This document shows, piece by piece, positions 17,118 to 64,000 of a stretch of 64,000 bases of DNA. The stretch is from NCBI GenBank assembly GCA_001772615.1, contig MEUZ01000003.1, forward strand, positions 182,422-246,421, read 5' to 3'. How positions within the stretch are numbered: the stretch's first letter is position 1; each line of letters starts with the position of its first letter. The position numbers and the translations under genes are program-made. This stretch comes from a candidate division WWE3 bacterium RIFCSPHIGHO2_01_FULL_40_23. GTDB taxonomy: Bacteria; Patescibacteriota; WWE3; UBA101185; 2-01-FULL-41-18. Under the pieces are notes generated by a model. That model saw only the letters and a list, made by a program, of their open reading frames with translations, made no database searches and was not told the origin of the DNA.

Positions 17118-18215
17118 ATGCATAAAAACTTAGCCTCCTATTTAACTCAAACCAAAAAAGCACTCATGCGTGAACTAGACTCCTATTTTAAGGAAAAGAT
17201 TAAGGAGTTTAGGCGAGAGCTAAAAGAAAGTTCATTTATAGAGCTTGTTGAGGAGCTAAGAAACATGTCGGTCAATGAAGGCAAAATGATAAGACCAACA
17301 CTTGCTTTGTGCACTTACCAGATGATAACTGGTAAAAAACTTACCAAAGATATAATTAGAGCAGCATTGTCACTTGAGCTTAATCATAAATTCCTTCTTA
17401 TCCATGATGACATAGCAGATAACGATAAAATACGATACGGGAAACGAAATATCATAGGCCTATATGAAGAAAGGTTCGCTAAATCCCACCCATCAAGAAT
17501 AGAACTTGCTGAAAGATACGCTCTCTCGGTTTCAATGGTAGCAGGAGATGTAAATCACACTTTTGTCTATGATATTCTTCTTAAATCAAAAATTAACGAA
17601 AAACTTAAAATTAAGCTAGCGAACACCCTTGGAAAAATAATGAGCGCTACTGCCAGGGGGTGGAAGGAAGAGTATGAATTTACGAACAAGGAAATTCAGA
17701 ACGTGTCAGAAGAAGATGTTATTAATAACCTTAAATACATAACCTCAAATTACACAACAGAAGGGCCTATTCTATACGGATATGAAATGTCCGAAAGCAA
17801 AAATTTAAAACTACTTAAACTTATAAATCAATACTCAATCCCCCTTGGGATAGCCTATCAAATAAAAGATGATCTCTTAAGTCTATTTGGAGAACAGGAA
17901 AAGATGGGCCAGGAAATAAAGTCTGACATTAAAGAAGGCAAAAAAACAATTCATTTGTTATACGCATACTCTAAAGCTTCAAAAGAAGAAAAAGAACTAA
18001 TCTCAAAAAATCTAGGAAATAAAAACGTGACTAAAGACGAAATAGATAAGATTAAAAAAATCGTAATTAAAACCGGTGCTAAAGATTATAGTGAAAAGGT
18101 GGCCAAAGATTTTATAACTAATTCCCTCAAAAGCCTTAAAAAAATCTCTCTTGATAATAAATACAAAAAGGTGCTCCTGGAACTTGCTTACTTTTCAATT
18201 GAGAGAGAAAAATAA
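17118..18215 (+). CDS. polyprenyl diphosphate synthase (trans-isoprenyl diphosphate synthase family)
   Basis: First aspartate-rich motif LIHDDIADND and second DD-containing motif IAYQIKDDLLSLFG. Confidence 0.7.
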   Translation: MHKNLASYLTQTKKALMRELDSYFKEKIKEFRRELKESSFIELVEELRNMSVNEGKMIRPTLALCTYQMITGKKLTKDIIRAALSLELNHKFLLIHDDIADNDKIRYGKRNIIGLYEERFAKSHPSRIELAERYALSVSMVAGDVNHTFVYDILLKSKINEKLKIKLANTLGKIMSATARGWKEEYEFTNKEIQNVSEEDVINNLKYITSNYTTEGPILYGYEMSESKNLKLLKLINQYSIPLGIAYQIKDDLLSLFGEQEKMGQEIKSDIKEGKKTIHLLYAYSKASKEEKELISKNLGNKNVTKDEIDKIKKIVIKTGAKDYSEKVAKDFITNSLKSLKKISLDNKYKKVLLELAYFSIEREK

Positions 18216-50722: not shown

Positions 50723-51115
50723 CTATATCTTTACCGAATTGATCTTCAGCCAATTTGACGTCTCCTTAATCGCACTTCTCTTCTTTATAATATCCGTTAC
50801 CAGGTCATAGAATTTATTATCCCTTGCCCTAATCTCCCATCCATTAAGGTGGAGGAAAATAAAAACGGAGTAAACTGCCGTTCTTTTATTACCATCTACG
50901 AATGGGTGGTTTAATATTAGTGAGTGGATTAATGATGAAGCTTTATCAAAAATTGATTGATAAAGAAATTTACCTCCAAAAGAAGATTTAGGCCTCTGAA
51001 CCGAAGATTCCAGCAACGCAAGGGCCCTTATACCATCTGCTCCTCCATACAGTTCCAAAGATAACTCGTGCAAAAACAGAATTTCTTCCAAAGTAAGAAA
51101 CCTTATTCTAGACAT
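50723..51115 (-). CDS. doc: Doc (death-on-curing) Fic-family toxin
   Basis: Degenerate Fic motif HPFVDGNKR characteristic of Doc; 130 aa. Confidence 0.8.
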   Translation of the reverse strand: MSRIRFLTLEEILFLHELSLELYGGADGIRALALLESSVQRPKSSFGGKFLYQSIFDKASSLIHSLILNHPFVDGNKRTAVYSVFIFLHLNGWEIRARDNKFYDLVTDIIKKRSAIKETSNWLKINSVKI

Positions 51116-51370
51116 TTACTCCTCCGCGAGTCTTTTTAACAAGCTATCGTATTTTTTTGTGAATTCCTGGGCTATCTTAATGAATTTGGGGTTAATGGCC
51201 GTGTCACCTTTTTTAGACAATTTAACAGGAGCAATTGTCAGGACGTCGGATTCTAAGTCCTTCTCAAGCATAACTTCTGAACCCGCACTTAAGTTCATTT
51301 CTCTAAGAATTTCCTTAGGAATTGTTACAGCAACCGAGTTTCCGTTTTTGTACAATTTTTGTGTTATCAT
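51116..51370 (-). CDS. AbrB/MazE (SpoVT-AbrB swapped-hairpin) antitoxin partner of Doc
   Basis: LYKNGNSVAVTIPKEILREMNLSAGSEV matches the SpoVT/AbrB domain; its stop abuts the doc start. Confidence 0.7.
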   Translation of the reverse strand: MITQKLYKNGNSVAVTIPKEILREMNLSAGSEVMLEKDLESDVLTIAPVKLSKKGDTAINPKFIKIAQEFTKKYDSLLKRLAEE

Positions 51371-51500: not shown

Positions 51501-51578
51501 TCGGGGTGTGGCGCAGTTGGCTAGCGCACCAGTATGGGGTACTGGGGGTCGCAGGTTCGAGTCCTGTCACCCCGACCA
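51501..51578 (+). tRNA. tRNA-Pro (anticodon GGG)
   Basis: Cloverleaf: acceptor CGGGGTG/CACCCCG with the C1:G72 pair typical of bacterial tRNA-Pro. D stem GCGC/GCGC. Anticodon stem CCAGT/ACTGG with loop AUGGGGU. T arm GCAGG-TTCGAGT-CCTGT. Discriminator A. Encoded CCA. Length is off by one nt in my hand parse. Confidence 0.8.
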
Positions 51579-51628
51579 TTGAGAAAAACAAGTATGGAAC
51601 TTACTGATCTAGTAAAGAAAAATAGAAT

Positions 51629-51958
51629 ATGGAAACTGCCTTAAAAAGAATAAAGCAGTACTATAATCCGGGTTCATGCTGGATTGCAGAAGTAAACTCA
51701 AAACTAGTTGGCATCCTTACCAGTAAACCGGATAACGTTTATGATAATCAAGAGTTATGCATAGATGTAATTTCGGTTGATCCTGAACATCATAAATCCG
51801 GAATAGGAAGTAAGCTCTTACAAACCGCAGAAAATTATGCAAAAACGCAAGGCTATGAGGCCACGTGGCTATCAGCCAGTGTAGACTTACCTTCCTTCAA
51901 CTGGTACATGAAAACCGGATTTAAAGAAACCAGCTGGAAAATTCTTGTAAAACCGTAA
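51629..51958 (+). CDS. short GNAT-fold acetyltransferase (109 aa, possibly N-terminally truncated)
   Basis: Motif A HHKSGIGSKLL with downstream WYMKTGF; starts only 50 nt after the tRNA. Confidence 0.5.
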   Translation: METALKRIKQYYNPGSCWIAEVNSKLVGILTSKPDNVYDNQELCIDVISVDPEHHKSGIGSKLLQTAENYAKTQGYEATWLSASVDLPSFNWYMKTGFKETSWKILVKP

Positions 51959-52080
51959 GATAATAAACCGTTGCCGACAATAAACCATGTTAAAATCAAC
52001 TTATGATTCTAATACTTGATCGAAATGGAAGATAGCATTCGTAAAAAACTAAAAGAATTAACCGAAAAATTTCTAACAAT

Positions 52081-52356
52081 ATGAGAGGTAAAAAATTTAT
52101 AATTAACTCAACAAAGATGGACTTACATAGGGTAGTAACCGCAACTGGAAATATAAATAAAGAGCTGCCCCAACAATCAGTGATAGAGTTTATGGAACAT
52201 GCTGATAAAGATTTCGGAAAAATAGAATTGACGAAATGGGAACAGACGCTTAGGCAACATCTGCAAAATTTACAAAAGCAATTACCTTATATAAAGGATC
52301 CACATTCCAGGTTAAGATGGGCAGAAGATGTAATGACCATAAGATGTAGGCTTTAA
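52081..52356 (+). CDS. hypothetical small protein (91 aa)
   Basis: Intact ORF; no motif. Confidence 0.3.
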   Translation: MRGKKFIINSTKMDLHRVVTATGNINKELPQQSVIEFMEHADKDFGKIELTKWEQTLRQHLQNLQKQLPYIKDPHSRLRWAEDVMTIRCRL

Positions 52357-52420
52357 AATAGCTCAAAACAACCTGCCCTCTTCTAATCGATGGCTAGCGA
52401 TAGCCGACCAAAGAATTAAA

Positions 52421-53038
52421 ATGAAGCTAACTGAACAAGAAAAAATAACAATCAAAACGTACGATAAAATCGCAGCTGAATGGAGCAAAAAACATCATAT
52501 ACATGATTACTGGAAAGAGGAATTAAAGCTATTTAAGAAATTTCTACCTATAGGAAAAATAATTGATATTGGTTGCGGAGGTGGCAGAGATGCAAAACCT
52601 TTGTCAAATCTAGGCTATAAGTACCTAGGAACAGATATATCAACAGGTTTACTAAAAGAGGCTAAGAAAAATAATCCAGGTATTAAGTTCATATATAAGA
52701 ATTTATATAAACCGAGCTTTAAAAGTAATACATTTGATGGTTTTTGGGCATCTGCAATATTTTTACATATCCCAAAAGACAGAATTAACCTGATATTACA
52801 AAATATAAGAAATTGGATTAAACAAGGTGGGGTAGGTTTTATATCCGTTAAGGAAGGCGGTGGGGAGGTATTAGATAATAGTGACATAGAAGGACCAGTA
52901 AGATTTTGGTCGTACTATAAACTAAGTGAATTCCGAAAATTACTTATGAGTAATAAATTTAAGATTTTAAAAAATTACCGTAAAAAAGTCATTGAGAGTA
53001 CTATTTGGTTAATTTATTTCGTTGAAGTTACAAAATAG
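52421..53038 (+). CDS. class I SAM-dependent methyltransferase
   Basis: IIDIGCGGGRDAKPL motif I; LGTDIS motif II. Confidence 0.6.
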   Translation: MKLTEQEKITIKTYDKIAAEWSKKHHIHDYWKEELKLFKKFLPIGKIIDIGCGGGRDAKPLSNLGYKYLGTDISTGLLKEAKKNNPGIKFIYKNLYKPSFKSNTFDGFWASAIFLHIPKDRINLILQNIRNWIKQGGVGFISVKEGGGEVLDNSDIEGPVRFWSYYKLSEFRKLLMSNKFKILKNYRKKVIESTIWLIYFVEVTK

Positions 53039-54674
53039 CTCAAAACAACCTGTCCCCCGCCGGATGACGATCAAGCAGTTACTACATCAAACTTTTTTTA
53101 TCTTATGCTTACTTACAGCCCTAGCCGGCTTTTTAAGGCTTCGCAACATTTCGGCTTTCAAACTTTATCCTGACTCTTATCAAAGCCTCATTGTTGCAAG
53201 AAACATCAGAGACTTTGGAAACGTTTCAGCAACTTTGGGAGAAGGCGGGATAGTTGAACCGCAGTTCATCGCATGGAGCAGGCCCGGTTACCCTCTTCTA
53301 ATCAATCTTCTAATGCCCCTGGTTCACAACGATGCTTTGTCCGCACAGATAGTCACATTTTTAGCAGGGCTCCTGATGATTCCAGCCGCATATCTTTTTA
53401 TATCAACCCTATACAATTCAAAAAAATCAGGCCTCACTGCCGCACTCCTAACCGCCCTTTTGTTTAACCTAACGGTCTGGGGCGGCTTTATACTTACAGA
53501 AACTACAGGAATCCTTTTTTTAATCCTCTTTTTGTACAGCCTTTTTAAATCCTTTAAATCCGAAACATCACTCGCTAACCCGAAAGATTATTTGACAGGA
53601 TTCCTTTTTGCCGCCGCAGTGATGACACGTTACGAATACATAATTCTTATTATCCCAATCATTTTTATTACCTTTAGCAAAAGCCAAAAGCCCGTTACCA
53701 GGCTCTTCAATATTCTCGTCTTTTCCTTTTTCACAGTATCGGTTGTTGCCGGCCTTCTTTTCCCGCTAGATAACATCTTACCCCCAATCAAAGAACAGAT
53801 GTCATACCCCTTGTACATAGCTTTAGGCATTCTTGGGTTTACATTAATCATTGGTATTCTAAATAAATCAATTCCACAGGAAATAAAGCAAAAAGTTTTT
53901 AGAGTACTTCGAGAATCCGCACAAAAAGCACCGATCCTTATAGCAATAACTCTGGCAATCCTTTACCTAGCAAATAGATCGGGGCTCCTGGTACTTTCAG
54001 GAATTTGGGAATTTGCCAAAACCGACTTGCTTTTAACGCTTGCATTCCTTATAGGTTCACGCCAAATGACAAAAGAGAAAAATCCGGATATTCCACTGAT
54101 AATCTTTACACTAGCCTCAATAACTTTTCTTGGGTTTATTTACTACAATGTTAACCCCTTGGCCCAAAGATATTTCACCCACCTTTTGCCATTTCTATTA
54201 ATACCTGCCTCCAAAGCTACGGAAAACTTAAAAAGCAAGGCTCTACTTACAATCCTAATCCTGGCCGCAATCCTTCAAACAGGCATCACATTTAACGGGG
54301 CGAAAAACTGGCAAAATGGAGATTGGCTTATGGAAAGTTACGAAGAAAAATCGGCCAAAATACTTAGCCAGAAAGTTAAAGACAAAAACACAATAATCGT
54401 AACCTCTTTTCCAGCCGCTTATTTTTACTTTACCAACCTAACTACCCAGGGCGTCACCGATTCTCCTCCCTACATTTACTTTCAAACAAACAACAGACCG
54501 ATTTTGATAGTAGAAGACATGGCGATGCGAGACGTTTATCCAAACTTCACAAATTTTTTACACAAGGACCTGAAAGACAAAAAAGTGGCTGAATACTTAG
54601 TTGGTAAAACCTACCATTACAGATTCAACGACCTAAATGAAGATAGACCTGTAGTTCTATACAAATATAACTAA
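53022..54674 (+). CDS. polytopic membrane protein, probable GT-C fold glycosyltransferase (ArnT/PMT-like)
   Basis: About 13 TM helices with a periplasmic first loop (PDSYQSLIVARNIRDFG) and a C-terminal soluble domain; overlaps the upstream MTase by 17 nt. Confidence 0.4.
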   Translation: MKLQNSSKQPVPRRMTIKQLLHQTFFILCLLTALAGFLRLRNISAFKLYPDSYQSLIVARNIRDFGNVSATLGEGGIVEPQFIAWSRPGYPLLINLLMPLVHNDALSAQIVTFLAGLLMIPAAYLFISTLYNSKKSGLTAALLTALLFNLTVWGGFILTETTGILFLILFLYSLFKSFKSETSLANPKDYLTGFLFAAAVMTRYEYIILIIPIIFITFSKSQKPVTRLFNILVFSFFTVSVVAGLLFPLDNILPPIKEQMSYPLYIALGILGFTLIIGILNKSIPQEIKQKVFRVLRESAQKAPILIAITLAILYLANRSGLLVLSGIWEFAKTDLLLTLAFLIGSRQMTKEKNPDIPLIIFTLASITFLGFIYYNVNPLAQRYFTHLLPFLLIPASKATENLKSKALLTILILAAILQTGITFNGAKNWQNGDWLMESYEEKSAKILSQKVKDKNTIIVTSFPAAYFYFTNLTTQGVTDSPPYIYFQTNNRPILIVEDMAMRDVYPNFTNFLHKDLKDKKVAEYLVGKTYHYRFNDLNEDRPVVLYKYN

Positions 54675-54747
54675 CAAAAAGTTGTTTTTGCCAACTTGAC
54701 AGTGTTAGAATATAGGCTTATCTGGGTATTTTAAACGGACAGGCACA

Positions 54748-55692
54748 ATGAAATTAATAGTACAAATACCCTGCTACAACGAGGAAAAAACACTCCCTCT
54801 TGTTCTTTCCACGATCCCTAAAAGCATACAGGGTATATCTGAAATTGAAACTTTAGTAATAGATGACGGATCTTCAGACAAAACATCAGAAATCGCAAGA
54901 AATCTGGGAGTAAATCATATCGTAAGACACAAACAAAATAAAGGCTTGGCGGCAGCCTTCGCGGCCGGCATCAACACCGCTTTAAAACTTGGCGCGGATA
55001 TCATAGTAAATACAGACGGAGACAACCAATACCCCCAACAAGAGATTCCAAGACTAATAAAACCAATTTTGGACGGCACTCACGATATGGTAATAGCGGA
55101 TAGACAAGTCACAAAGGTAAAGGAATTTAGCCCGATTAAAAAACTTTTGCAGATATGGGGAAGCAGCCTGGTTAGAGCCCTTTCGGGAACCAAAGTACCC
55201 GATGCCCCGAGCGGCTTTCGGGCTTTCTCAAAAGAAGCGGCGATGCAGTTAAACATAGTTACCGATTTTAGTTATGTAATTGAAACTGTGGTTCAGGCAG
55301 GCAGGAAAAGGATTGCAACAACACATGTACAAGTTGTAACAAATCCAAAAACCCGTGAATCAAGATTATTTAAAAGTATTTTTGAGCACATTAAAAGATC
55401 GGCTGCCGCTGTCCTAAGAAGTTACGCGATGTATACACCGTTTAGAATCTTTCTTGTGATGGGAGTTGTTGTACTTGCAATCGGTGCAATCCCTTATTTA
55501 TGGTTTGGAGTTCAATCAGCTCTTATGGGAGAGCCGCTTGGCGGGCATGTCCAATCACTTATCTTCGGAGCCGTATTTATAATAATGGGTTTTATGTTCA
55601 TTGTGATTGGAATCATCGCAGACCTTCTGGCTATTAATAGAAGGTTGCTGGAAGACGCTCTCTACCGCCTTAAGCAGATGGAGTTGAAATGA
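54748..55692 (+). CDS. GT2 polyprenyl-phosphate sugar synthase (Dpm1/ArnC/GtrB-like) with C-terminal TM anchor
   Basis: IPCYNEE, DDGSSDKT and DGDNQ (DXD) motifs; two C-terminal TM helices as in GtrB/ArnC. Confidence 0.7.
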   Translation: MKLIVQIPCYNEEKTLPLVLSTIPKSIQGISEIETLVIDDGSSDKTSEIARNLGVNHIVRHKQNKGLAAAFAAGINTALKLGADIIVNTDGDNQYPQQEIPRLIKPILDGTHDMVIADRQVTKVKEFSPIKKLLQIWGSSLVRALSGTKVPDAPSGFRAFSKEAAMQLNIVTDFSYVIETVVQAGRKRIATTHVQVVTNPKTRESRLFKSIFEHIKRSAAAVLRSYAMYTPFRIFLVMGVVVLAIGAIPYLWFGVQSALMGEPLGGHVQSLIFGAVFIIMGFMFIVIGIIADLLAINRRLLEDALYRLKQMELK

Positions 55693-56759
55693 GTGAGAAA
55701 TCAAAAATAAAGCTGTTATTCATTACCAGAAAATATCCCCCTTCAGTTGGAGGGATGGAAAAAGTAAGCTATTGCCTTGGCGAAGAGTTAAAAAAGAAGG
55801 TTGATACAAAGATAATAGCGTGGGGGAAGTCTCAAAAATGGCTACCTTACTTTCTGCCGAAAGCCTTCTTTGAGGCATTGATAATAATTTATAGAGATGG
55901 GATCACAAACATTCACTTGGGTGATGGTTTATTAGCACCACTTGGGCTCCTTCTTAAAGCGATTACTGGAAAGAAAGTTACAGTAACCATCCACGGTTTA
56001 GACATTACTTATAAAAACTCTCTTTACCAGCTTGTAGTTCCCTGGTGTGTAAGTAAGCTGGATAAAGTAATTTGTGTCAGTGAAGCGACTTTAAAAGAAT
56101 GTGTTAAGCGTGGAATTCCAAAAGAAATGAGCACAGTTATCCACTGGGGAATTTATCCCGAAGAATACAAAATCAGTGCAACCCGAGCGGATCTGGAAAA
56201 TATTGCAGGCAGGGATTTAGATGGCAAGAAAGTAATAATAACGGTAGGAAGACTAGTCAAAAGAAAGGGGGTCTATTGGTTCATTGATAATGTATTACCA
56301 AAACTGGATCATAATTTTGTGTACCTGATCATAGGAGATGGACCTGAAAGAGCGAGGATAGAAGATTTGATAAAAACCTTAAACCTTAAAGATAGGGCGT
56401 TACTCCTGGGCAGAGTTTCCGACCATGATTTGAAAATAATTTACAACACCGCTGACATCTTCGTCATGCCAAATATTGAAGTAGAAGGAGATATTGAGGG
56501 GTTTGGGATAGTGGCAATGGAAGCAGCATCTACCGGTATGTTGATTGTGGCCTCTTATGTAGATGGTATGAAAGATTTACTGAACGAAAAAGTGGGTATA
56601 CCAGTTAAGGAAAGGGTAGATTTCGCTCCAAGAATAAAAAAAGCTCTCAAGGACAGAGAGCAAAATTCTAACATAAGCAAAAACGTAGCTAGTTACATAC
56701 AAGACAACTTTAGTTGGACAAGTATTAGAGAAGAATACATCAAAGCGGCAGTTCGATAG
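55689..56759 (+). CDS. GT4 family glycosyltransferase (Glycos_transf_1)
   Basis: EGFGIVAMEAASTGMLIV (E-X7-E region) and GT-B architecture. Confidence 0.7.
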   Translation: MSEKSKIKLLFITRKYPPSVGGMEKVSYCLGEELKKKVDTKIIAWGKSQKWLPYFLPKAFFEALIIIYRDGITNIHLGDGLLAPLGLLLKAITGKKVTVTIHGLDITYKNSLYQLVVPWCVSKLDKVICVSEATLKECVKRGIPKEMSTVIHWGIYPEEYKISATRADLENIAGRDLDGKKVIITVGRLVKRKGVYWFIDNVLPKLDHNFVYLIIGDGPERARIEDLIKTLNLKDRALLLGRVSDHDLKIIYNTADIFVMPNIEVEGDIEGFGIVAMEAASTGMLIVASYVDGMKDLLNEKVGIPVKERVDFAPRIKKALKDREQNSNISKNVASYIQDNFSWTSIREEYIKAAVR

Positions 56760-56761
56760 AT

Positions 56762-57610
56762 ATGGAAGAGAAAACAAAAACTACAATAGAACAAGTAGAG
56801 CGCTACTGGTCAAAACAAAGCGAAATGTATCTTAATACAGACGAGAGGGGGTTTGGAGCAGTTATATATTCTGGGATGCCTATTTGGTTCAACAGCTTCT
56901 TTAACCATTACCAGCAAAAAGCTTTTATGACTCTAACTGAAGGAATTAACTTCAGCGGTCTTTCAGCATTAGACGTTGGGTCAGGCGTTGGAAGGTGGTC
57001 CCACATTCTGTATAAAAAGGGTTGCAAGGTTATTGGTATTGATTTCGAGAAAAGTAGGTTACAAAAAGCCAAAAAGAACCCCAATTTGAAGAACATCACC
57101 TTTAAAAACATGTCAGTGGTTAATTTAGAATTCGAAGATAATATTTTTGATTTTACTAATTCAATCACCGTACTACAACACATACCACATGAGAACAAGA
57201 GCACAGCTATAAAAGAAGTATGTAGAGCTACTAAAAAAGGTGGTTATATATTAATAATTGAGTTAATTGATCTTTTCGACGATGCGCCACATGTTTTTCC
57301 CCTATCAGACAAAGGATGGATAGACATATTCGCAAACAACGGCTGTGAACTAATAAAAAAAGTTGGGTGTGAATTTTCTCCACTTTTGAGGATACTAAGA
57401 TACATTAGATACGTTCTAACAAAGAAAAAGAATATAGATAAGAGTACAGGAAGAATAACTTTGAGCAAATTTGAGTTACTTATTATGAGAGTAGTTATCC
57501 TGTTATCTTATCCCATAGAAGAAGTTTGCGTCAGTATTACACCGGCTAAGTACGCCAGACATGGAGGCTATCTTTTTAAAAAGTTGAGCAAACGGAAGAA
57601 GGAATTCTAA
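56762..57610 (+). CDS. class I SAM-dependent methyltransferase
   Basis: ALDVGSGVGRWS motif I; VIGIDFE motif II. Confidence 0.65.
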   Translation: MEEKTKTTIEQVERYWSKQSEMYLNTDERGFGAVIYSGMPIWFNSFFNHYQQKAFMTLTEGINFSGLSALDVGSGVGRWSHILYKKGCKVIGIDFEKSRLQKAKKNPNLKNITFKNMSVVNLEFEDNIFDFTNSITVLQHIPHENKSTAIKEVCRATKKGGYILIIELIDLFDDAPHVFPLSDKGWIDIFANNGCELIKKVGCEFSPLLRILRYIRYVLTKKKNIDKSTGRITLSKFELLIMRVVILLSYPIEEVCVSITPAKYARHGGYLFKKLSKRKKEF

Positions 57611-57663
57611 CAAAAGGTAGATGAAGCGAGATTAGATTTTACAGATAGATACTTGCAAATATT

Positions 57664-58503
57664 ATGTCCAAGGTCCAAATCACAACAGTTATTACAAGGT
57701 ACTCCGAGCCCGATCATATAGTGAGAGACTGTCTAAACTCATTAAAATTGCAGCGTAATGTCAAAGGAGACGTACTCTTCTTAGACCAAAAGGAATCCAG
57801 AGAAATTAAGGATTGGCTAAAAACACAAAATACAGAAAATGTAAGGTTTCAGTATATAAGTATTGAACCGAGGTCACTGTCGTACGCAAGAAATCAGGGC
57901 ACCAAACTAGCAAGTGGTAACTTAGTCGCATTCAGTGATCCAGATTGTGTCCTTAAGCCTAACTGGATGGAAGAACTCATAACAACTTTTAGAAAATTTA
58001 ATGCTTCAATAGTAGGAACGAAAATCACTCCTGTTTGGGGTGCGGAAACTAGCTGGTATCACAAATCAAAAGTGATCCAGGAATTCTACGCTTTGCTCGA
58101 TTTATCCCAGAATTACAAATTGGTAAGTAAGGTTATAGGAGCAAGTTTCGCCCTGGATAAGAATAAAATTAAATCCTCTCCATATTTTGATGAAGGGCTT
58201 GGAAGGAAAGAGGGGATGTTTCTAGGTGGTGAAGAAACAGACTTATGTAAAAGGGTTGTGACTAGTGGGGGGATCGTAGCTTATACTGCAAATACCCAAG
58301 CTCTACATAAAATTCCCAAAGAAAGAATGAACCTCAAGTGGTTGTTTAAGATGGCTTATTTTGGCGGTATAACTAGGGCGATGAGGGGTGGTAAAGTCGA
58401 AACCTTTACCACAAGTTATAACCTTAGAGATAAGGCTGCCATAAGCCTCGTATTACCCTTCTTTGCTTATGGTTATTTTAAAACTAAAATCAAAATCAGC
58501 TGA
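57664..58503 (+). CDS. GT2 family glycosyltransferase
   Basis: VITRYSEP, LVAFSDPDCV (DXD) and rhamnosyl/galactosyl-transferase-like layout. Confidence 0.6.
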   Translation: MSKVQITTVITRYSEPDHIVRDCLNSLKLQRNVKGDVLFLDQKESREIKDWLKTQNTENVRFQYISIEPRSLSYARNQGTKLASGNLVAFSDPDCVLKPNWMEELITTFRKFNASIVGTKITPVWGAETSWYHKSKVIQEFYALLDLSQNYKLVSKVIGASFALDKNKIKSSPYFDEGLGRKEGMFLGGEETDLCKRVVTSGGIVAYTANTQALHKIPKERMNLKWLFKMAYFGGITRAMRGGKVETFTTSYNLRDKAAISLVLPFFAYGYFKTKIKIS

Positions 58504-58545
58504 TTTTTAGAAATCAATTTGATGACCAAACCATAGTATAAGCAA

Positions 58546-60186
58546 GTGCAACTTAGTAATATGAGTTCTCTAGTAAGCCTGATGTCAAAAAGAATTTTCA
58601 TTTTGTTACCATTCTTTGTATTCGGAGGATTTTTGATAGCTTATACCACCATTTCAGCCCAAATCCCTGTTGATGGAGACGGTGGATTTCATGCGGGTGT
58701 TGTTGAATATATAGCCAAAAACGGAACACTAACCGACGTACATCCATATGTTCTGGTAGACCGATACGAACACCTCCCACTCTTTTACCCAAAACTTTTT
58801 TACGTAGAAATGGCTTCTCTATTCACGTTGTTAGGAGATACAACTTTAAAAGCTGTTGTTCCAACAATCGGTATATTTATTGCTATCTTCATCTTTCTTG
58901 TGTCCAGAAGAATTTCAACTAGCAAAGCCGTGCCAATAATTACCAGCTTGGTTGCTCTATCAAGCTTTGGTCTAATAACAAACTCGGTTGATATGTTCCG
59001 TATGGAAACAATGGTCATACTGTTGGGCTTAGCTTCCATCTATTGTTTTTACATGTTTACTCAAGTAAGATCACTCAATTGGTTTGTATGTTCAGTTATT
59101 TTTTTGGCAGCTTGTATTTCTACAAAACAACAAGCGTACATTATTCTCCCGATTTTTCCAATAATAGCAATTAATAAATTACATACTGCTTTTAAAACTA
59201 AGTTGTTTTACACCATAATATTATTTTTCTTTAGCTTTCTTTTAGCTGCACCAATCCTGACTAATCAGTTCCTAGGCACTGGTACACTTTTTTATCCAGG
59301 CGTTCCGTTTATTAACTCCATTGAGCGTCTCACCACTAGTGCTTTAGATATTATAGGACATGAGACGGGTGAAGGTTGGAAAAGGTATGCATTTGAATCG
59401 GACAGAGGTCAGAATTTAAAAATAAAATTTAGTAACCCCGCAAATCACCTCTCATTTCTAAATCCCTTTAGTACTCTCACTACAAAACCATTCTCGGCGG
59501 GTATAAACATACTTCTCATACTTGGATGCTTTATTCTAATTATGAAAGGAAATTTATTTATAGTTATATTTCTCGTTATACAACAACTTCTACTCCACAA
59601 ATTCCCTATTGAGAGATATTACATCCTCAGTCAGATTCTAGCGTCAATGATAATAGGCGTCAGCTTTGAATTCTTTTTTCGATTTCAAAAATTAAAATTC
59701 ATTAATGCTCTTATACTAAGCTTTATTCTAATTGGGGTCATCTCATCAACAGTGTACACACTCTCATCATCTTCTTCCATTCCAGATTATTCGTACGGAA
59801 GGCATTACCCGAACAGGCTAAAAGCAACAATTGAATCCGGTAGGTGGTTGGAGAAAAACTCACCTAAAAACGCAACAGTTATTACACCTCGTGCTTACTT
59901 AGACTCCTATTATGCAAAGCGAGATAGCCTTTGGTTAAACCAGTTGGGGGGTGAAGAAATTTATGAAGCCTTCTTAAACAACGATGTCAACAAAATCTAC
60001 ACAATTTCCAAGAGCTATCCAAGTAGTTACATTCTATTGCCTGAGTTCTGGATTGTTAACGGTTCTGCTGACGGTATGTGGATTCCTTTTATCGAAAGGG
60101 AAACAGTCAACAAGATTAAGGAAAGAAATGATTACTTTGAGCCAGTTTACGATGATGGCCTAGTAAGCATTTTCAAAGTTAAATGA
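58546..60186 (+). CDS. polytopic membrane protein with C-terminal extracytoplasmic domain, probable GT-C fold glycosyltransferase or oligosaccharyl-transferase/polymerase-like
   Basis: At least 11 TM helices, an acidic first loop (PVDGDGGFHAG), and a soluble C-terminal domain of about 170 aa. Confidence 0.4.
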   Translation: MQLSNMSSLVSLMSKRIFILLPFFVFGGFLIAYTTISAQIPVDGDGGFHAGVVEYIAKNGTLTDVHPYVLVDRYEHLPLFYPKLFYVEMASLFTLLGDTTLKAVVPTIGIFIAIFIFLVSRRISTSKAVPIITSLVALSSFGLITNSVDMFRMETMVILLGLASIYCFYMFTQVRSLNWFVCSVIFLAACISTKQQAYIILPIFPIIAINKLHTAFKTKLFYTIILFFFSFLLAAPILTNQFLGTGTLFYPGVPFINSIERLTTSALDIIGHETGEGWKRYAFESDRGQNLKIKFSNPANHLSFLNPFSTLTTKPFSAGINILLILGCFILIMKGNLFIVIFLVIQQLLLHKFPIERYYILSQILASMIIGVSFEFFFRFQKLKFINALILSFILIGVISSTVYTLSSSSSIPDYSYGRHYPNRLKATIESGRWLEKNSPKNATVITPRAYLDSYYAKRDSLWLNQLGGEEIYEAFLNNDVNKIYTISKSYPSSYILLPEFWIVNGSADGMWIPFIERETVNKIKERNDYFEPVYDDGLVSIFKVK

Positions 60187-60237
60187 TAAAAATTTAACAG
60201 TATAACCGACAGGGAATTTTAGATATATAAATTTGTT

Positions 60238-61665
60238 ATGATAACAGAAACATATAAAGGTACATCTTACTTATTACTCTCTTCTTTATTTTTTATTGCT
60301 TCTGGTTACTTGATAAACATATTTCTTGGAAGAAGGCTAGGACCAGAGTTGTACGGTGTCTATGGTGTTGTAATCGCCTTTTGGAGCGGGGTGAACCTTA
60401 TTCTTACAGCAGGGCTTCCGCAAGCTGTTTCCAAATTCGTCTCGGAAGATGAAAAAAACGCAGAAAGCATCCTTAAAAGCGCCATTAATCTTCAGGCTAT
60501 CGGAGTTCTTATAATCGGAGTGATTTATTATCTACTTGCAGAAACCGTCGCATCGGCCTTCAAAGACCCGACGCTAATACCTTATTTAAAACTCTCATCA
60601 TTTATCTTTCCTTTTTACAGCTTCTATTCCATTTACACCAGCTATTACAACGGCCTTCACGCATTTAAAAAGCAATCTTTCATGACCATCATTTATTCAC
60701 TAGCTAAACTGGTTTCAATAATCGGCCTGTCAATTAACTTTAAACTTTATGGAGCAATCTTTGGCTTTATCATTGCTCCGACTGTCGCATTACTCACCGG
60801 CTTTCACTTCCCAAAAACCGTAACACACCAAATCTTTCCATATAAAAAGTTACTTCTTTTTTCTCTACCTCTTATCGGCTTCACTGTTTTTGCAACACTT
60901 CAGCAATCTATTGATCTCTTTTTAGTTAAAGCTCTAATCCATTCAGGTGAATCGGCCGGTTTCTACACAGCAGTTCAAAATATCTCTAAAATCCCCTTAT
61001 TTGCCTTAAGCGCTTTCTCGCTTGTGTTATTTCCAACCATTTCAAGAAGCGTTGCCCAAAATCAGCATGAGAAAGCCACAGCTTTAATTCAACACTCCCT
61101 AAGGCTCGTTTTGCTGGTGCTCACCCCTGGCATACTTTTAATATCGGCAACAAGCAAAGAACTTGTAACCTTACTTTTTTCCAAAACTTATCTTCCCGCC
61201 GCCTATCCTCTCTCAATCTTAATAATCGGTTTTGGCTTCTTAACCCTTTCACACATCCTCTCAAATATCTTAAGCGGCAGCGGCTCTCCTAAAACTCCCC
61301 TTTATATTTCACTCATTGGAGCCTTTCTTAGCGGGTTTTTTTGCTATCTACTCATTCCAGAATTCGGTTTGGTAGGGGCTGCTCTTGCAAGCACCCTGGC
61401 AAGCGGTATCGGATTCCTCCTCTTAGCGCTACTCGTTTACAAAAAATTTAAAGTCTTCACTTCTTTTACAAGCTTTGGAAAAGTGCTTCTTGCTTCATCT
61501 ATAGTCTTTTTCATCACCAAGGCTATAAACCCCTCGCCGCTAAAACTTATTCTTCTTTATCCGCTTATGTTTACAATTTATACAATAATACTTATCCTGG
61601 TGAAGGAAATCTCAAGACAAGACCTAAACTATTTAAAAGACGCGGTGTTTAAAAGAAAGCTATGA
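60238..61665 (+). CDS. Wzx-like polysaccharide/oligosaccharide flippase (MOP superfamily, polysaccharide biosynthesis protein)
   Basis: About 14 TM helices and the Polysacc_synt-like N-terminal pattern (LLSSLFFIASGYLINIFLGRRLGPELYGVYG). Confidence 0.6.
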   Translation: MITETYKGTSYLLLSSLFFIASGYLINIFLGRRLGPELYGVYGVVIAFWSGVNLILTAGLPQAVSKFVSEDEKNAESILKSAINLQAIGVLIIGVIYYLLAETVASAFKDPTLIPYLKLSSFIFPFYSFYSIYTSYYNGLHAFKKQSFMTIIYSLAKLVSIIGLSINFKLYGAIFGFIIAPTVALLTGFHFPKTVTHQIFPYKKLLLFSLPLIGFTVFATLQQSIDLFLVKALIHSGESAGFYTAVQNISKIPLFALSAFSLVLFPTISRSVAQNQHEKATALIQHSLRLVLLVLTPGILLISATSKELVTLLFSKTYLPAAYPLSILIIGFGFLTLSHILSNILSGSGSPKTPLYISLIGAFLSGFFCYLLIPEFGLVGAALASTLASGIGFLLLALLVYKKFKVFTSFTSFGKVLLASSIVFFITKAINPSPLKLILLYPLMFTIYTIILILVKEISRQDLNYLKDAVFKRKL

Positions 61666-63095
61666 CTGTCCATAAAAAGGCCATAAAACTTGCTGTCTTT
61701 GTGCTAACCGGGCTGTTGGGGCTTTATGTTGTAATTCAAAACATAAACCCATTCGGTAAGGTGGCCGCATACAGCCTCGCTACCAAGGGTTTGTCCCAGC
61801 TTTCCCCTAAAGATAGAGTTACACAACAAGACGGGGTCCAAAAGCAAACCGGAGATTTAATATACTTCACTACCGATTTTCCTACCGAGTTTGATGAAGC
61901 TAAAGTCACAATCACCTTTAAAAATTCAACCCCTAACCAGCAGATTCATTTAGGTTTTAAGGATGAAGAAAAATACCACTACCAGACAAAGCCCATTGAT
62001 AATTCAAGTATTTCGGTTTTGGGGTGGAGCACAATCGGCGCAAACCCTGTGCTTTATCAAAAAAACAAAGTTTATGCAGATACTAACGAATTTCTTACTA
62101 CTCCCCCAACAGACGCCATAATCGGACTTCTTAATTTTGACAGGAACAACTTCACAACTGAAAGCATTAGACTGAACGACTACAAACCAAGTGATACTTT
62201 AACCGTCATTTCTTCACCCTTAAGAGGAAATACCACAATGTATGTTTACCTAAAAGATGAACCCTTTAGAATGTGGATCAAAAAGCAGGATTTGAATTGG
62301 TACAAAGGGCCTGATCCCTTGACAATCAAAGTTTATGATTCAGCCGGAGATCTTGTTTACACCCAAACACAAGATGATGATGGCATTGCCGACGCTTCAA
62401 AAGAAGTATTGCCTGAAAAAGAGATCTACGTGGAAAACCCCGGCCCGGGCCAGCCCGAAGAGGGCGTCTATAAAATAATATTTGAAAGCCAGGACTTATT
62501 AATAAAAGAGATAAAAACAAATCTTCATAAAATAGTATTTGAAGGCCCGCTGTTTGCCGCCGGAAACAGCAAGGTTTACAAAGGGGCAGTAGAAAATATG
62601 GAGCCTCTAACTTTGTTTTCCAATGCTTTGCTTCTTAAGGCTCTTACTCTGCATAATGAGACCACCCAAAGTATTCGGCTCAATGACAGGGACTTCCCTC
62701 TTGTCAAAGCGCATACAACCGAGGTTATAACTCCAAAAATAGGTGAATTTACTTTGACAGCGCCAAAAAGTGACGTGATACTAAAGGGGATTGGGTATTT
62801 TGCCTTTACTAAAGAGCAATTTTTCCTCCCAACCTCATACCATTTTTTAAACATAGAGGAACCGTCGGATGTACAGTGGGCTGATTACATAATCTCAAAT
62901 TACAAAGCTCCAAGAATAGAGGGAGACTGGAAAGTAGCTGAACAGACATTTGATCTTGCAAAAGCCGTGCCGGATAAGAATAAGCTTAGCTGGCTGATCA
63001 AATCCCCCAATCTAAAAGAGTCTTCAGGAAGCGTAGAAATCAAGGACATTGAAGTGACCTATACCAAAAAGCCGATGATTAAAAAGCTGTTCTAA
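61662..63095 (+). CDS. hypothetical membrane-anchored extracytoplasmic protein
   Basis: N-terminal TM, beta-rich body, no motif; translationally coupled to the flippase. Confidence 0.35.
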   Translation: MTVHKKAIKLAVFVLTGLLGLYVVIQNINPFGKVAAYSLATKGLSQLSPKDRVTQQDGVQKQTGDLIYFTTDFPTEFDEAKVTITFKNSTPNQQIHLGFKDEEKYHYQTKPIDNSSISVLGWSTIGANPVLYQKNKVYADTNEFLTTPPTDAIIGLLNFDRNNFTTESIRLNDYKPSDTLTVISSPLRGNTTMYVYLKDEPFRMWIKKQDLNWYKGPDPLTIKVYDSAGDLVYTQTQDDDGIADASKEVLPEKEIYVENPGPGQPEEGVYKIIFESQDLLIKEIKTNLHKIVFEGPLFAAGNSKVYKGAVENMEPLTLFSNALLLKALTLHNETTQSIRLNDRDFPLVKAHTTEVITPKIGEFTLTAPKSDVILKGIGYFAFTKEQFFLPTSYHFLNIEEPSDVQWADYIISNYKAPRIEGDWKVAEQTFDLAKAVPDKNKLSWLIKSPNLKESSGSVEIKDIEVTYTKKPMIKKLF

Positions 63096-63121
63096 GCGGC
63101 GCCGTCATTGACAGGAATGAC

Positions 63122-63415
63122 ATGGAAATAATTAATTTCTTGTATATCTTAACATCTTCAGTTTATATCCTATATCTTCCGGGATTAATGGTATCTTATG
63201 TGTTTTTTGAAAAAGGAAAAATAGATTTGATAGAAAGGATAGCTCTTTCATTTGCCCTTTCAATCTCCACTGTACCGCTTTTGGTCTTTTACTTAAACCT
63301 CCTCGGGGTTAAAATCACACGGGTTTCCGTTATACTGGATGTTCTTTTTATTATATTGGTTTCGGCAGTAGTCAGGTTTATAAAAAATGGGAAAAACACT
63401 AAAACTAATCTTTAA
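63122..63415 (+). CDS. small membrane protein (97 aa)
   Basis: Three TM helices; last genes of the co-directional cluster; GtrA-like flippase is one possibility. Confidence 0.3.
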   Translation: MEIINFLYILTSSVYILYLPGLMVSYVFFEKGKIDLIERIALSFALSISTVPLLVFYLNLLGVKITRVSVILDVLFIILVSAVVRFIKNGKNTKTNL

Positions 63416-63761
63416 AGAATTATTTAACGCTTCTTTGTGCATCTATTTACTGGCGCTTTTGGCAGAGGTAGTGCGGGAAGGCATTATTACAAATGTTTTT
63501 AACCTCAATATTCTTTTGATGGTGGTGGTTGTGTTTGGAATTCTGACTACGCTATTTAAAGTTGAGGATGAAGACTTGGAGCAAATGGACAAGAAGTTTA
63601 CCGAAAAAGATTTATACCTAACAATAATCCTAAGCCTGGGAGCAGGATTTTTAATTTACTATAAAACGGCATCGCTTGGCGTGATTTCGTACTTTATCTC
63701 TGCAGGTACAGCCGTTTTAATAATCCTCTTAACTACACTTATCTTCACCTCGGAAAATTAA
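63387..63761 (+). CDS. small membrane protein (124 aa)
   Basis: Four TM helices; overlaps the previous ORF. Confidence 0.3.
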   Translation: MGKTLKLIFKELFNASLCIYLLALLAEVVREGIITNVFNLNILLMVVVVFGILTTLFKVEDEDLEQMDKKFTEKDLYLTIILSLGAGFLIYYKTASLGVISYFISAGTAVLIILLTTLIFTSEN

Positions 63762-64000
63762 CCACTAAAATAACGCAAAAGTAAGTGGAAGATATACCCG
63801 AAGTAAAAGAGCCTGTCCTTAAGAGTTTATATTATGGGTGGGGTTGCACTGACCCTGGAGGCCCAGAGTGACAGTGGTTTTTGTCGCCGAAGCCCCAGCC
63901 GGGTTTACAGCCGTTGGCATCGACCTTCCCACCTCTCGCAGCGAAGACTCCCTGGGTCAGGAGCAGGAACGCTGCTGAAATTAGTACTATGACAGATACT

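Follow-up and report, generated by a model that had tools for sequence, protein, structure and literature searches.

A conserved gene cassette in a WWE3 bacterium, probably for lipid-linked glycosylation at the cell surface, with core genes shared by archaea

Overview

The 64-kb stretch of DNA analyzed here (the window) comes from an ultra-small groundwater bacterium of candidate division WWE3, part of the candidate phyla radiation (CPR). Between positions 53022 and 63761 it encodes a ten-gene operon that, together with a convergent gene starting at 63832, probably constitutes a conserved, chromosomal system for glycosylation of a cell-surface acceptor via lipid-linked intermediates. In order, the operon encodes a polytopic glycosyltransferase (GT) of the GT-C type (GT-C1), a membrane-anchored family 2 glycosyltransferase (GT2tm), a family 4 glycosyltransferase (GT4), an S-adenosylmethionine (SAM) methyltransferase (MT2), a soluble GT2 (GT2s), a second GT-C protein (GT-C2), a Wzx-type flippase, a 477-aa ectoprotein (P477), and two small membrane proteins of 97 and 124 aa (sm97 and sm124). 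Successive cluster genes overlap or are separated by gaps of at most 78 nt. Genes were assigned using Pfam, NCBIfam, and a hydropathy-based topology scan (Table 1). A preliminary description of this DNA had proposed a lipid-linked, extracytoplasmic glycosylation system, and the relatives of GT2tm, the flippase, and the assignments of the two GT-C proteins all support that proposal.

The membrane-anchored synthase and the cytoplasmic enzymes

GT2tm belongs to PF00535 (E 8e-25) and has transmembrane (TM) helices at residues 234-252 and 272-290. In a search of PDB sequences, the closest solved relatives were the DPMS of P. furiosus (5mlz, E 1e-17) and ArnC, of which three structures matched at E ~1e-13 over residues 2-294. 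Based on these matches and on the two C-terminal helices, GT2tm is assigned to the polyprenyl-monophosphate sugar synthases, and its substrate is predicted from that family. The best NCBIfam matches, to AglJ, PpgS, ArnC, and PgfS, all score under their cutoffs (102 vs 325 bits for AglJ). The preliminary description placed a Dpm1/GtrB-like synthase at the head of the glycosylation genes; the type is borne out by the matches to solved structures, but the first glycosylation gene is GT-C1.

The remaining enzymes of the cytoplasmic side are a GT4, whose start overlaps the stop of GT2tm by 4 nt and which is present in one to three copies in related loci, the methyltransferase MT2, and GT2s. MT2 carries a single hydrophobic C-terminal segment (residues 239-257), and some relatives, Methanoperedens among them, also have a methyltransferase gene within or next to the cassette. 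The best NCBIfam match of GT2s, to AglG, is weak (87.7 bits vs a cutoff of 440).

Two distantly related GT-C proteins

GT-C2 itself scores 22.1 bits against a PMT_2 threshold of 26.1, but seven of seven members of its family match PMT_2 (best E 1.8e-8). Comparison of the GT-C1 and GT-C2 families gave an hhalign probability of just 47% over 158 columns. We therefore reject the idea that the two are recent paralogs and treat them as distinct, remotely related families. Family alignments of both show an invariant Asp right after the first TM segment, in the contexts YPD37SYQ (GT-C1) and PVD33GDG (GT-C2). GT-C enzymes such as ArnT, PMT, and PglB carry a catalytic acidic residue at this position. 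The cassette thus has the GT-C-fold transferase with an acidic residue in the first outer loop that is expected of a three-component glycosylation system.

The two proteins do not belong to PMT proper. Against PF02366, GT-C1 scores 20.6 bits (cutoff 22.7) and GT-C2 has no match; only the broader PMT_2 family was matched. The invariant pair in loop 1 is Asp37-Ser in GT-C1 and Asp33-Gly in GT-C2, not the Asp-Glu motif of PMT. Neither protein has the signature of STT3/AglB/PglB (GT66) enzymes, which includes a C-terminal WWDYG motif, and the NCBIfam score for Agl23 was 22 bits against a cutoff of 126. NCBI names the homologs "glycosyltransferase family 39". The PMT_2 assignment upholds the earlier view that the cluster encodes two large GT-C-fold membrane proteins, and they did not prove to be unrelated transporters.

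The flippase and its probable partner P477

The predicted Wzx-like flippase is confirmed by Pfam as a member of the MOP family. It matches Polysacc_synt_3 (E 2e-25, 90 bits) and Polysacc_synt (E 4e-22, 79.5 bits), both above cutoffs, as well as MurJ (E 2e-17), and has ~12-14 TM segments.

P477 has no match in Pfam, NCBIfam, or PDB sequences. The family is nevertheless large: in a library of 1.84 billion representative sequences we found 1,791 clusters at 50% identity with E <= 1e-3, and 850 with E <= 1e-30. An AlphaFold2 model (pLDDT 91.3) depicts a membrane-anchored, all-beta protein whose jelly-roll ectodomain resembles a carbohydrate-binding module (CBM), with weak likeness to BcsB. An alignment across CPR, Chloroflexi, DPANN, and Methanosarcinales contains 16 invariant positions (15 beyond the start Met), and eight charged or polar invariant residues fall within 188-278 (R188, K208, D210, N212, D218, D239, D240, and D278). 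Judged from the alignment, such a pattern is more in keeping with an active site or with ligand or metal binding than with a passive role in structure. Two family members (P0165 and P0195) end in a LytR_C domain (PF13399), as found on LCP-type cell-wall polymer ligases.

Several lines of evidence tie P477 to the flippase. The stop of the Wzx gene and the start of the P477 gene overlap (ATGA) in the window, in five other loci (L007 and L016-L019), and in one 270-kb contig. Three in-frame Wzx-P477 fusions, with mutual identities of 35-38%, were found in three lineages, and the TM helix of P477 is kept at the junction. The two genes are also adjacent in nearly all CPR loci and in both Chloroflexi loci; in locus L022, GT-C2 lies directly upstream of P477 instead.

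The small membrane proteins sm97 and sm124

The protein sm97 matches the DUF1616 family (PF07760; E 7e-10, 39 bits vs a cutoff of 31.6) over profile positions 25-114 of 307, the N-terminal TM part. Homologs in DPANN are 260-275 aa long. Identity across CPR, Chloroflexi, and archaea is 35-55% (43-47% to archaeal versions), and the residues PG..F..ER..S are invariant. Searches of PDB found no relative of sm97, and sm124 has neither a family nor a PDB relative, but the gene for sm124 is kept beside those for P477 and sm97 in CPR, DPANN, and Dehalococcoidales. We considered whether sm97 and sm124 could be flippases of the GtrA, SMR, or ArnE/F type. This idea found no Pfam or PDB support and stands as an analogy only. 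Regarding which protein flips which lipid, the Wzx/MOP protein is present, and sm97 and sm124 resemble neither GtrA, SMR, nor any solved structure.

A convergent gene for a small secreted protein

Downstream of the operon and convergent with it lies a gene (63832-64014, minus strand; 12171-12353 in locus L001) for a small protein with a signal peptide followed by PGWGFGDKNHCHSGPPG. Across loci the motif follows the pattern P-G-[WF]-G-x-G-[DN]-x-x-[HR]-x-H-x-G-P-P-G, with PGWGxGDxNHxHxGPPG as the near-invariant form; we refer to it as the PGWG protein. It has no Pfam family. The stretch 63832-64000 is GC-rich because of its Gly and Pro codons. We considered a structured noncoding RNA at 63834-64000, but no Rfam match was found (at gathering thresholds or at E <= 1), and cross-locus alignment and translation identify the stretch as a minus-strand coding sequence.

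In every CPR locus whose downstream sequence is available, a PGWG gene, sometimes duplicated, is found no farther than ~1 kb from the cassette; one Dehalococcoidales locus also has it beside the cassette. A reciprocal search with the peptide retrieved 399 metagenomic loci, in which CPR-like, low-GC contigs again have the cassette adjacent. In six other loci, the PGWG gene is within ~100 nt of a gene of the Wzy_C/O-antigen-ligase family (WaaL/PglL), confirmed by Pfam for two. A universal tie between the peptide and glycosylation genes was rejected, however, given that the neighbors outside the CPR-like contigs and these six Wzy_C loci are heterogeneous. The HxH and the Trp and Thr residues of the motif suggest metal binding or a modification site. 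Overall, the PGWG protein is a reasonable candidate acceptor.

Conservation of the cassette in CPR and the question of mobility

Distant CPR lineages, among them Saccharimonadia (loci L008, L014, L016, and L017), Roizmanbacteria, Parcubacteria, and "Patescibacteria group", share one gene order at protein identities of ~40% and with unrelated flanks. This order is GT-C1, GT2tm, one to three GT4s, an optional methyltransferase, GT2, a GT-C2 slot, Wzx, P477, sm97, and sm124. Nine CPR loci extend far enough upstream to be scored for GT-C1, and profile hidden Markov models detected it in all nine (477-666 bits); the GT-C2 slot, although kept, is more divergent. The GNAT, ORF91, and MT1 genes, which had been counted as the beginning of the cluster, are absent upstream of GT-C1 in relatives and thus lie outside the conserved cassette. 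In addition, every contig read that carries an identical P477 protein has the same neighbors. The sole difference among those contigs concerns a 272-aa NTase-like gene split into 93-aa and 155-aa ORFs (L003 9079-9905 vs L001 12457-13275). Two loci with a typical CPR-type cassette (L010 and L012; GC content 0.33-0.40, 40-44% identity) are labeled "uncultured Gammaproteobacteria" and another (L018) "Candidatus Eisenbacteria"; mis-binning or mislabeling is likely in these cases.

The preliminary description also suggested a horizontally mobile, strain-variable island, integrated at a tRNA gene and acting on a giant Ser/Thr-rich surface protein encoded at 10223-13624. A few features of the locus point in this direction. 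A tRNA-Pro gene and a MazE/Doc pair lie directly upstream, beside an N-terminally short GNAT, and tRNA genes of differing identity mark cassette boundaries in relatives. The strongest compositional deviation in the window is that of the 50-64 kb region, which has a tetranucleotide distance of 0.0121 (segments of equal size, 0.0097 +/- 0.0014; ~1.7 SD above the mean) and a GC content at third codon positions of 0.379 vs 0.348. CPR, Chloroflexi, DPANN, and Methanosarcinales all have carriers of the core genes, and the giant protein is Ser/Thr-rich (22% vs 13 +/- 2.3%) and has a signal peptide. Against mobility, neither the 51-64 kb region nor the 10 kb that follow it encode an integrase or recombinase domain. 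With up to three mismatches allowed, the window and parent contig contain no repeat of the tRNA 3' end, and eight other loci contain no tRNA fragment longer than 14 nt. GC content is flat (0.36-0.41), and the compositional deviation is small and could be explained by membrane-protein composition. The identical neighbors in all contigs with this P477, the synteny in nine of nine distant CPR loci, and the housekeeping flanks (RecA, RecX, and RNase Y) also argue against an island. The giant protein is encoded 40 kb away, and no comparable neighbor exists in relatives, so a link between it and the cassette, based on its composition, is unsupported. We consider an island of this kind very unlikely and, as a recent acquisition, largely refuted; the cassette is more probably a lineage-wide module than a strain-variable island. 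The other outcome foreseen in the preliminary description, a conserved and syntenic cluster with a known wall-polymer function, holds in part: the cassette is syntenic in CPR, but no known wall-polymer function can be assigned to it.

In relatives, a hand count placed nine of the 11 tRNA genes found no more than 1.5 kb from a cassette boundary, a zone that makes up about one-quarter of the flanking DNA (Table 1). Boundary tRNAs, varied in identity and present in most CPR and Chloroflexi loci, are far above the expectation from tRNA density, and neither an integrase nor a tRNA-fragment repeat goes with them. Because these tRNAs exceed chance and the core genes span domains, ancient lateral spread is plausible.

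Distribution across domains

Scanning GTDB species representatives with a P477 profile recovered 43 loci. Carriers outside CPR include Chloroflexi/Dehalococcoidales, DPANN archaea (Woese-, Nano-, Pace-, and Aenigmarchaeota), Methanosarcinales, Methanoperedens, and Methanofastidiosum. P477 and the DUF1616-type protein are retained in these loci, and sm124 in some of them; a homolog of GT2tm, GT4s, a methyltransferase, and Wzx are usually nearby. In Methanoperedens nitroreducens (L029), for example, the order is GT2, GT4, a 493-aa unknown protein, GT4, methyltransferase, Wzx, a 567-aa polytopic protein, P477, a 1,181-aa protein, and DUF1616. This locus contains no priming transferase and no AglB. 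The 567-aa protein gives a weak GT-C2-like match (hhalign 33%). The 1,181-aa protein (L029 11217-14762) consists of a P477 core (hhalign 99.8%) fused to the archaeal S-layer domain PF07752. In Methanosarcinales-type archaea the P477 gene is followed by such a much larger paralog: similar proteins of ~1,100-1,200 aa occur in other loci (L028, L030, L032, L034-L036, and L038), and Methanococcoides and Methanomethylovorans have two tandem pairs of P477 and large-paralog genes.

Pathway completeness

We searched ~60 major ORFs of the window and the 10 kb downstream for further pathway components. Among these there is no priming phosphoglycosyltransferase, Wzy/Wzz, STT3, LCP ligase, UppS, or sugar-nucleotide enzyme. 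Primers of the PF00953 and PF02397 families and STT3 are also lacking in the three to four CPR loci with precomputed Pfam annotations and in the Methanoperedens cassette, and no cassette protein has a family match to Wzy_C, Wzz, or PCP. A polyprenyl synthase at 17118-18215 (plus strand) had been named as the source of the carrier lipid. This assignment was rejected: the enzyme belongs to PF00348, the trans-isoprenyl diphosphate synthases, and is not the cis-prenyltransferase UppS. It supplies at most the primer for a carrier lipid. A carrier-dependent extracytoplasmic pathway is predicted, but the earlier claim that the cluster holds the full logic of a lipid-linked pathway was overstated, because the priming enzyme and the final transferase were not identified.

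Proposed mechanism and identity of the acceptor

We propose that, on the inner side of the membrane, GT2tm charges polyprenyl phosphate with a sugar taken from a nucleotide sugar, and that GT4, GT2s, and MT2 extend and methylate the membrane-bound glycan. The Wzx/MOP protein, as expected from its family, would then flip the lipid-linked glycan. On the outside, the two GT-C proteins, as their fold would allow, could use the flipped lipid donor(s) to add sugar(s) to the acceptor. P477, as the putative partner of the flippase, may bind or process the emerging glycan, perhaps assisted by sm97 and sm124 as accessory subunits in the membrane. The polyprenyl-monophosphate sugar may itself serve as the base for glycan assembly, by analogy with the Haloferax Agl pathway, which builds its glycan on dolichol monophosphate (PMC3871713). 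Two observations suggest this: no initiating-type membrane enzyme other than GT2tm is conserved in every lineage, and no cassette encodes a diphosphate-forming primer. Regarding the acceptor, we lean toward a surface protein, either of the S-layer type or the co-encoded PGWG...GPPG protein, because the core is common to lineages with and without peptidoglycan, because an archaeal paralog is fused to an S-layer domain, and because a gene for a secreted protein is co-conserved.

Some observations weigh against this interpretation. The components were assigned by family, topology, and fold, and all NCBIfam matches are far under the equivalog cutoffs, so sugar identity, linkage, and acceptor cannot be read from them. 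Neither GT-C protein has a sequence-level match to solved GT-C enzymes, using single sequences or profiles, and their catalytic assignment consequently rests on Pfam PMT_2 and on fold. Outside CPR we detected no GT-C1, and in archaea support for the GT-C2 slot is weak. The gene for a priming transferase could lie in another part of the genome. The PGWG motif is distributed more widely than the cassette, and many high-GC contigs that encode it have no glycosylation gene within 8 kb. Finally, the P477-LytR_C fusions and the CBM-like fold point equally to a polymer acceptor as to a protein.

One alternative therefore retains the same machinery but has a non-protein envelope glycan or glycolipid as the acceptor, either a lipoglycan resembling lipomannan/lipoarabinomannan (LM/LAM) or a polysaccharide with decorated side chains, as in the GacI-L, CsbB/YfhO, and Gtr systems. 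In the lipoglycan version, GT4s would make a cytoplasmic glycolipid primer that is flipped and extended outside by the GT-C proteins using polyprenyl-phosphate sugars, with P477 as a polymer-binding subunit. The CBM-like and weakly BcsB-like ectodomain of P477 is consistent with this alternative, given that CBMs in GT-C enzymes bind acceptor polysaccharides (PMC11127046), as is the LytR_C domain on some members, which is typical of LCP wall-polymer ligases. GT4s with a MOP flippase are typical of polysaccharide loci, and, in the portions of the literature available to us, Gram-positive pairs of GtrB-like and GT-C proteins mostly decorate teichoic acids or rhamnopolysaccharides. The distribution of the core argues otherwise. 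Archaea are not known to have peptidoglycan or teichoic acids, and cultured Dehalococcoidales (Dehalococcoides, for example) reportedly have no peptidoglycan wall. Since the core is common to archaea and Dehalococcoidales, a peptidoglycan-linked polymer cannot be the common acceptor. Moreover, no Wzy, Wzz, LCP protein, ABC exporter, or priming enzyme is found in or adjoining the cassette, and the S-layer domain on the archaeal P477 paralog favors a protein. We regard a polymer acceptor as a substantial possibility, although a less probable one than not.

A conventional Wzx pathway on undecaprenyl diphosphate seems unlikely. Here, a distant primer of the WecA or WbaP type would start a repeat unit assembled by GT4 and GT2, GT-C2 or P477 would act as polymerase or ligase, and GT2tm and GT-C1 would add a side-branch sugar. 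The Wzx-type flippase does sit with two or three Leloir glycosyltransferases, and priming enzymes are sometimes encoded apart from such loci, as for O-antigen loci that use WecA. The genes for GT2tm and GT-C1 are adjacent everywhere in CPR and GT-C1 is absent outside CPR, which fits an add-on decoration module. However, the cassettes examined and the 64-kb window contain no primer, Wzy_C, or Wzz, and GT2tm, the sole initiating-type membrane enzyme in all lineages, has relatives that use polyprenyl monophosphate. GT-C enzymes of the PMT_2 clan (PMT, ArnT, and AglS) also characteristically use monophosphate-linked donors.

Glycosylation of a surface protein via a lipid-linked intermediate could also be taken further, as an unrecognized type of surface glycosylation that spans domains, in which a GT2-primed glycan built on a monophosphate carrier is flipped by a Wzx-P477 complex and delivered by PMT_2-type GT-C enzymes to surface proteins, for example the PGWG...GPPG protein or proteins of the S-layer type. 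In this scheme P477 would represent a new class of extracytoplasmic protein that is coupled to a flippase and handles glycans; given its invariant Arg/Lys/Asp site, it might even be the missing ligase or transferase. We consider this extended proposal doubtful at present.

Genomic surroundings

Directly after the tRNA-Pro gene the window contains 13 co-directional, plus-strand ORFs. Every ORF of the region 51501-63761 that had been reported is present at the coordinates given earlier, and Pfam, NCBIfam, and topology agree with the earlier calls.

Table 1. Features of the cassette and its flanks, and tRNA genes at cassette boundaries in related loci. Positions refer to the window unless a locus is named.
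Feature	Position	Strand	Basis and remarks
tRNA-Pro(GGG)	51502-51578	+	ARAGORN; sole tRNA in window; 1.44 kb upstream of cassette
GNAT	51629-51958	+	Pfam; 109 aa; N-terminally short (lacks ~first 25 profile positions)
ORF91	52081-52356	+	91 aa; no family
MT1, SAM methyltransferase	52421-53038	+	Pfam; 205 aa
GT-C1, polytopic GT-C of the PMT_2 clan	53022-54674 (public start: ATG 53064, 536 aa)	+	Pfam; ~11 TM
GT2tm, GT2 of polyprenyl-phosphate sugar synthase type (GtrB/DPMS/ArnC-like)	54748-55692	+	PF00535; 314 aa; two C-terminal TM
GT4, cytoplasmic glycosyltransferase	55689-56759	+	Glycos_transf_1 E 5e-31; 356 aa
MT2, SAM methyltransferase	56762-57610	+	Methyltransf_11/25/31 E ~1e-18; 282 aa
GT2s, soluble GT2	57664-58503	+	PF00535 E 2e-14; 279 aa
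GT-C2, second polytopic protein of the PMT_2 clan	58546-60186 (public starts at or near 58582, 534-541 aa)	+	Sub-threshold PMT_2 match plus family
Wzx-type MOP flippase	60238-61665	+	Polysacc_synt_3 E 2e-25; 475 aa
P477, ectoprotein with one N-terminal TM	61662-63095	+	No Pfam model; 477 aa
sm97, 3-TM protein	63122-63415	+	N-terminal part of DUF1616 (PF07760); 97 aa
sm124, ~4-TM protein	63387-63761	+	Topology; 124 aa; 29-nt overlap with sm97
PGWG protein, small, secreted	63832-64000, N-terminus extends to 64014	-	60 aa; convergent with cassette
Boundary tRNA-Glu	L011 1465-1539		
Boundary tRNA-Tyr	L012 1770-1843		24 nt from GT-C1
Boundary tRNA-Trp	L014 13352-13427		
Boundary tRNA-Glu	L015 742-816		52 nt away
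Boundary tRNA-Leu (two)	L018 1-346		
Boundary tRNA-Asn and tRNA-Arg	L027 13975-14049 (Asn); L042 3022-3098 (Arg)		Chloroflexi

The GNAT gene starts 50 nt past the tRNA, and the same short form has been called in several independent metagenomes; it may be a minimal GNAT or a scar left by rearrangement at the tRNA. Between recA and the tRNA-Pro gene, a MazE/AbrB-type antitoxin (84 aa) and a Fic/Doc-family toxin (130 aa) are encoded at 50723-51370 (minus strand). A sigma-70-like promoter match lies at 51405-51377 (minus strand). Promoter and terminator scans gave counts no higher than the shuffled expectation, in this region too, and were uninformative.

Beyond the cassette, the parent contig encodes a cytoplasmic NTase-like protein, a two-component system, and a MacAB-type ABC transporter. 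The downstream genes for proteins of 272 aa (cytoplasmic, NTase-like) and 161 aa (small, charged, and secreted) were considered as cassette members and rejected, as neither is kept in relatives. The rest of the window encodes bacterial housekeeping functions, including RecA, RecX, RNase Y, MiaA/B, aminoacyl-tRNA synthetases, SecDF, and RecJ. Peptidoglycan genes are also present, for an L,D-transpeptidase and a D-Ala-D-Ala carboxypeptidase.

A third GT-C protein of the PMT_2 type (528 aa, E 1.7e-9) is encoded outside the cluster at 4949-6535 (minus strand), adjoining a glycerophosphodiester phosphodiesterase gene (4070-4924); the cluster is therefore not the sole extracytoplasmic glycosylation capacity of this small genome. 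At 657-3182 (plus strand) the window encodes an 841-aa fusion of an AMP-binding (acyl-activating) domain, a phosphopantetheine carrier, and a glycerolipid acyltransferase, an Aas-like architecture. Genes for an alpha/beta hydrolase and the glycerophosphodiester phosphodiesterase adjoin it. From its domains, the fusion protein could re-acylate scavenged lysolipids, which bears on the dependence of CPR bacteria on host lipids.

Significance

CPR (Patescibacteria) and DPANN organisms are ultra-small and mostly episymbiotic, and their surfaces mediate attachment to hosts, but their surface glycobiology is essentially unstudied. A preprint on Saccharibacteria calls glycosylation in that group "unexplored" (10.1101/2024.11.25.624915). 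The analysis defines a compact, conserved cassette that is testable in cultivable Saccharibacteria. It links P477 (~1,800 clusters), a DUF1616-type protein, and a second small membrane protein to Wzx, in part by gene fusion, and nominates the small secreted PGWG protein as a candidate acceptor for a system whose core is common to bacteria and archaea. If a monophosphate carrier and a partner for the flippase are indeed used, the known repertoire of bacterial lipid-linked glycosylation mechanisms would be extended. If the cassette represents a cross-domain type, it could underlie the surface chemistry of episymbiotic ultra-small cells, as CPR and DPANN share the core.

Comparison with known systems

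A search of the literature available found no description of the cassette, of P477, or of DUF1616 function beyond one table of Haloferax glycoproteomics. Based on the features examined, the locus does not qualify as an STT3 oligosaccharyltransferase system, a PMT system proper, a Wzx/Wzy system (no primer, Wzy, or Wzz), a set of Agl equivalogs, or a tRNA-integrated island.

The cassette is comparable to the three-component systems, which combine a polyprenyl-phosphate-sugar synthase, a flippase, and a GT-C with an acceptor-binding CBM (GT136, Kelly et al. 2024; PMC11127046). In GT136, EmbC, and AftD, it is a CBM-like module that binds the acceptor (PMC11127046). Along with Shigella/Salmonella GtrA/B/C, ArnC/E/F/T, CsbB-GtcA-YfhO, GacI-J-K-L, and GT136, the cassette has a TM-anchored GT2, a flippase candidate, and GT-C protein(s); its CBM-like module has a counterpart in GT136. 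It differs in having two distantly related GT-C proteins per synthase and an extra GT4, GT2, and methyltransferase, and its flippase is a 475-aa Wzx/MOP protein coupled to a 477-aa ectoprotein rather than of the small GtrA/SMR type. In addition, the CBM-like module is a separate, flippase-linked polypeptide and not a GT-C domain, no pathway for a pre-made acceptor glycan is adjacent to the cassette, and the GT-C proteins have no match to characterized GT-C enzymes.

The Agl system of Haloferax volcanii (AglJ/G/I/E, AglP, and AglB; AglD/R/S) has a comparable repertoire: a GT2 that loads a monophosphate carrier, soluble glycosyltransferases, a methyltransferase, a Wzx-like flippase, and a PMT_2-type GT-C. 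We take the last three to be AglP, AglR, and AglS, respectively. The weak best NCBIfam matches of cassette proteins to AglJ, AglG, and Agl23, the lack of a diphosphate-forming primer, and the archaeal relatives of the core, one of them fused to an S-layer domain, add to this likeness. However, the cassette has no AglB/STT3, equivalog thresholds are missed, P477, sm97, and sm124 have no described Agl counterpart, and the host is a bacterium with peptidoglycan genes. The resemblance is in pathway logic only.

Bacterial protein O-mannosylation and GT39 systems, such as actinobacterial Ppm1/Pmt, Caldicellulosiruptor GT39 (PMC6151902), and Streptococcus mutans PgfS/PgfM1/PgfM2, also pair a synthase with a GT-C annotated as PMT_2/GT39, and PgfS is among the matches of GT2tm. 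In contrast to these, GT-C1 falls under the PF02366 threshold and has Asp-Ser in loop 1, and P477, Wzx, the methyltransferase, and the extra GT4 and GT2 have no place in those systems. The synthesis of LM/LAM and arabinogalactan in mycobacteria and corynebacteria (PimA/B, Ppm1, PimE, MptA/B, Emb, and Aft) resembles the cassette in GT4 steps followed by GT-C steps fed by polyprenyl-phosphate sugars, in several GT-C proteins, and in CBM-like ectodomains, which in those pathways bind the growing glycan. The cassette, unlike these, is compactly clustered, lacks phosphatidylinositol and arabinose-donor biosynthesis, has no sequence-level relation to them, and also occurs in archaea.

By analogy, the cassette would work like a three-component system of the Gtr/Arn/Gac type to which cytoplasmic glycan-building enzymes and a Wzx flippase have been added, with a logic close to that of Agl without AglB. 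The enzymology is familiar in outline; what is new are three conserved, uncharacterized components, a family of ectoproteins that can be fused to the flippase, and an unexpected distribution across bacteria and archaea.

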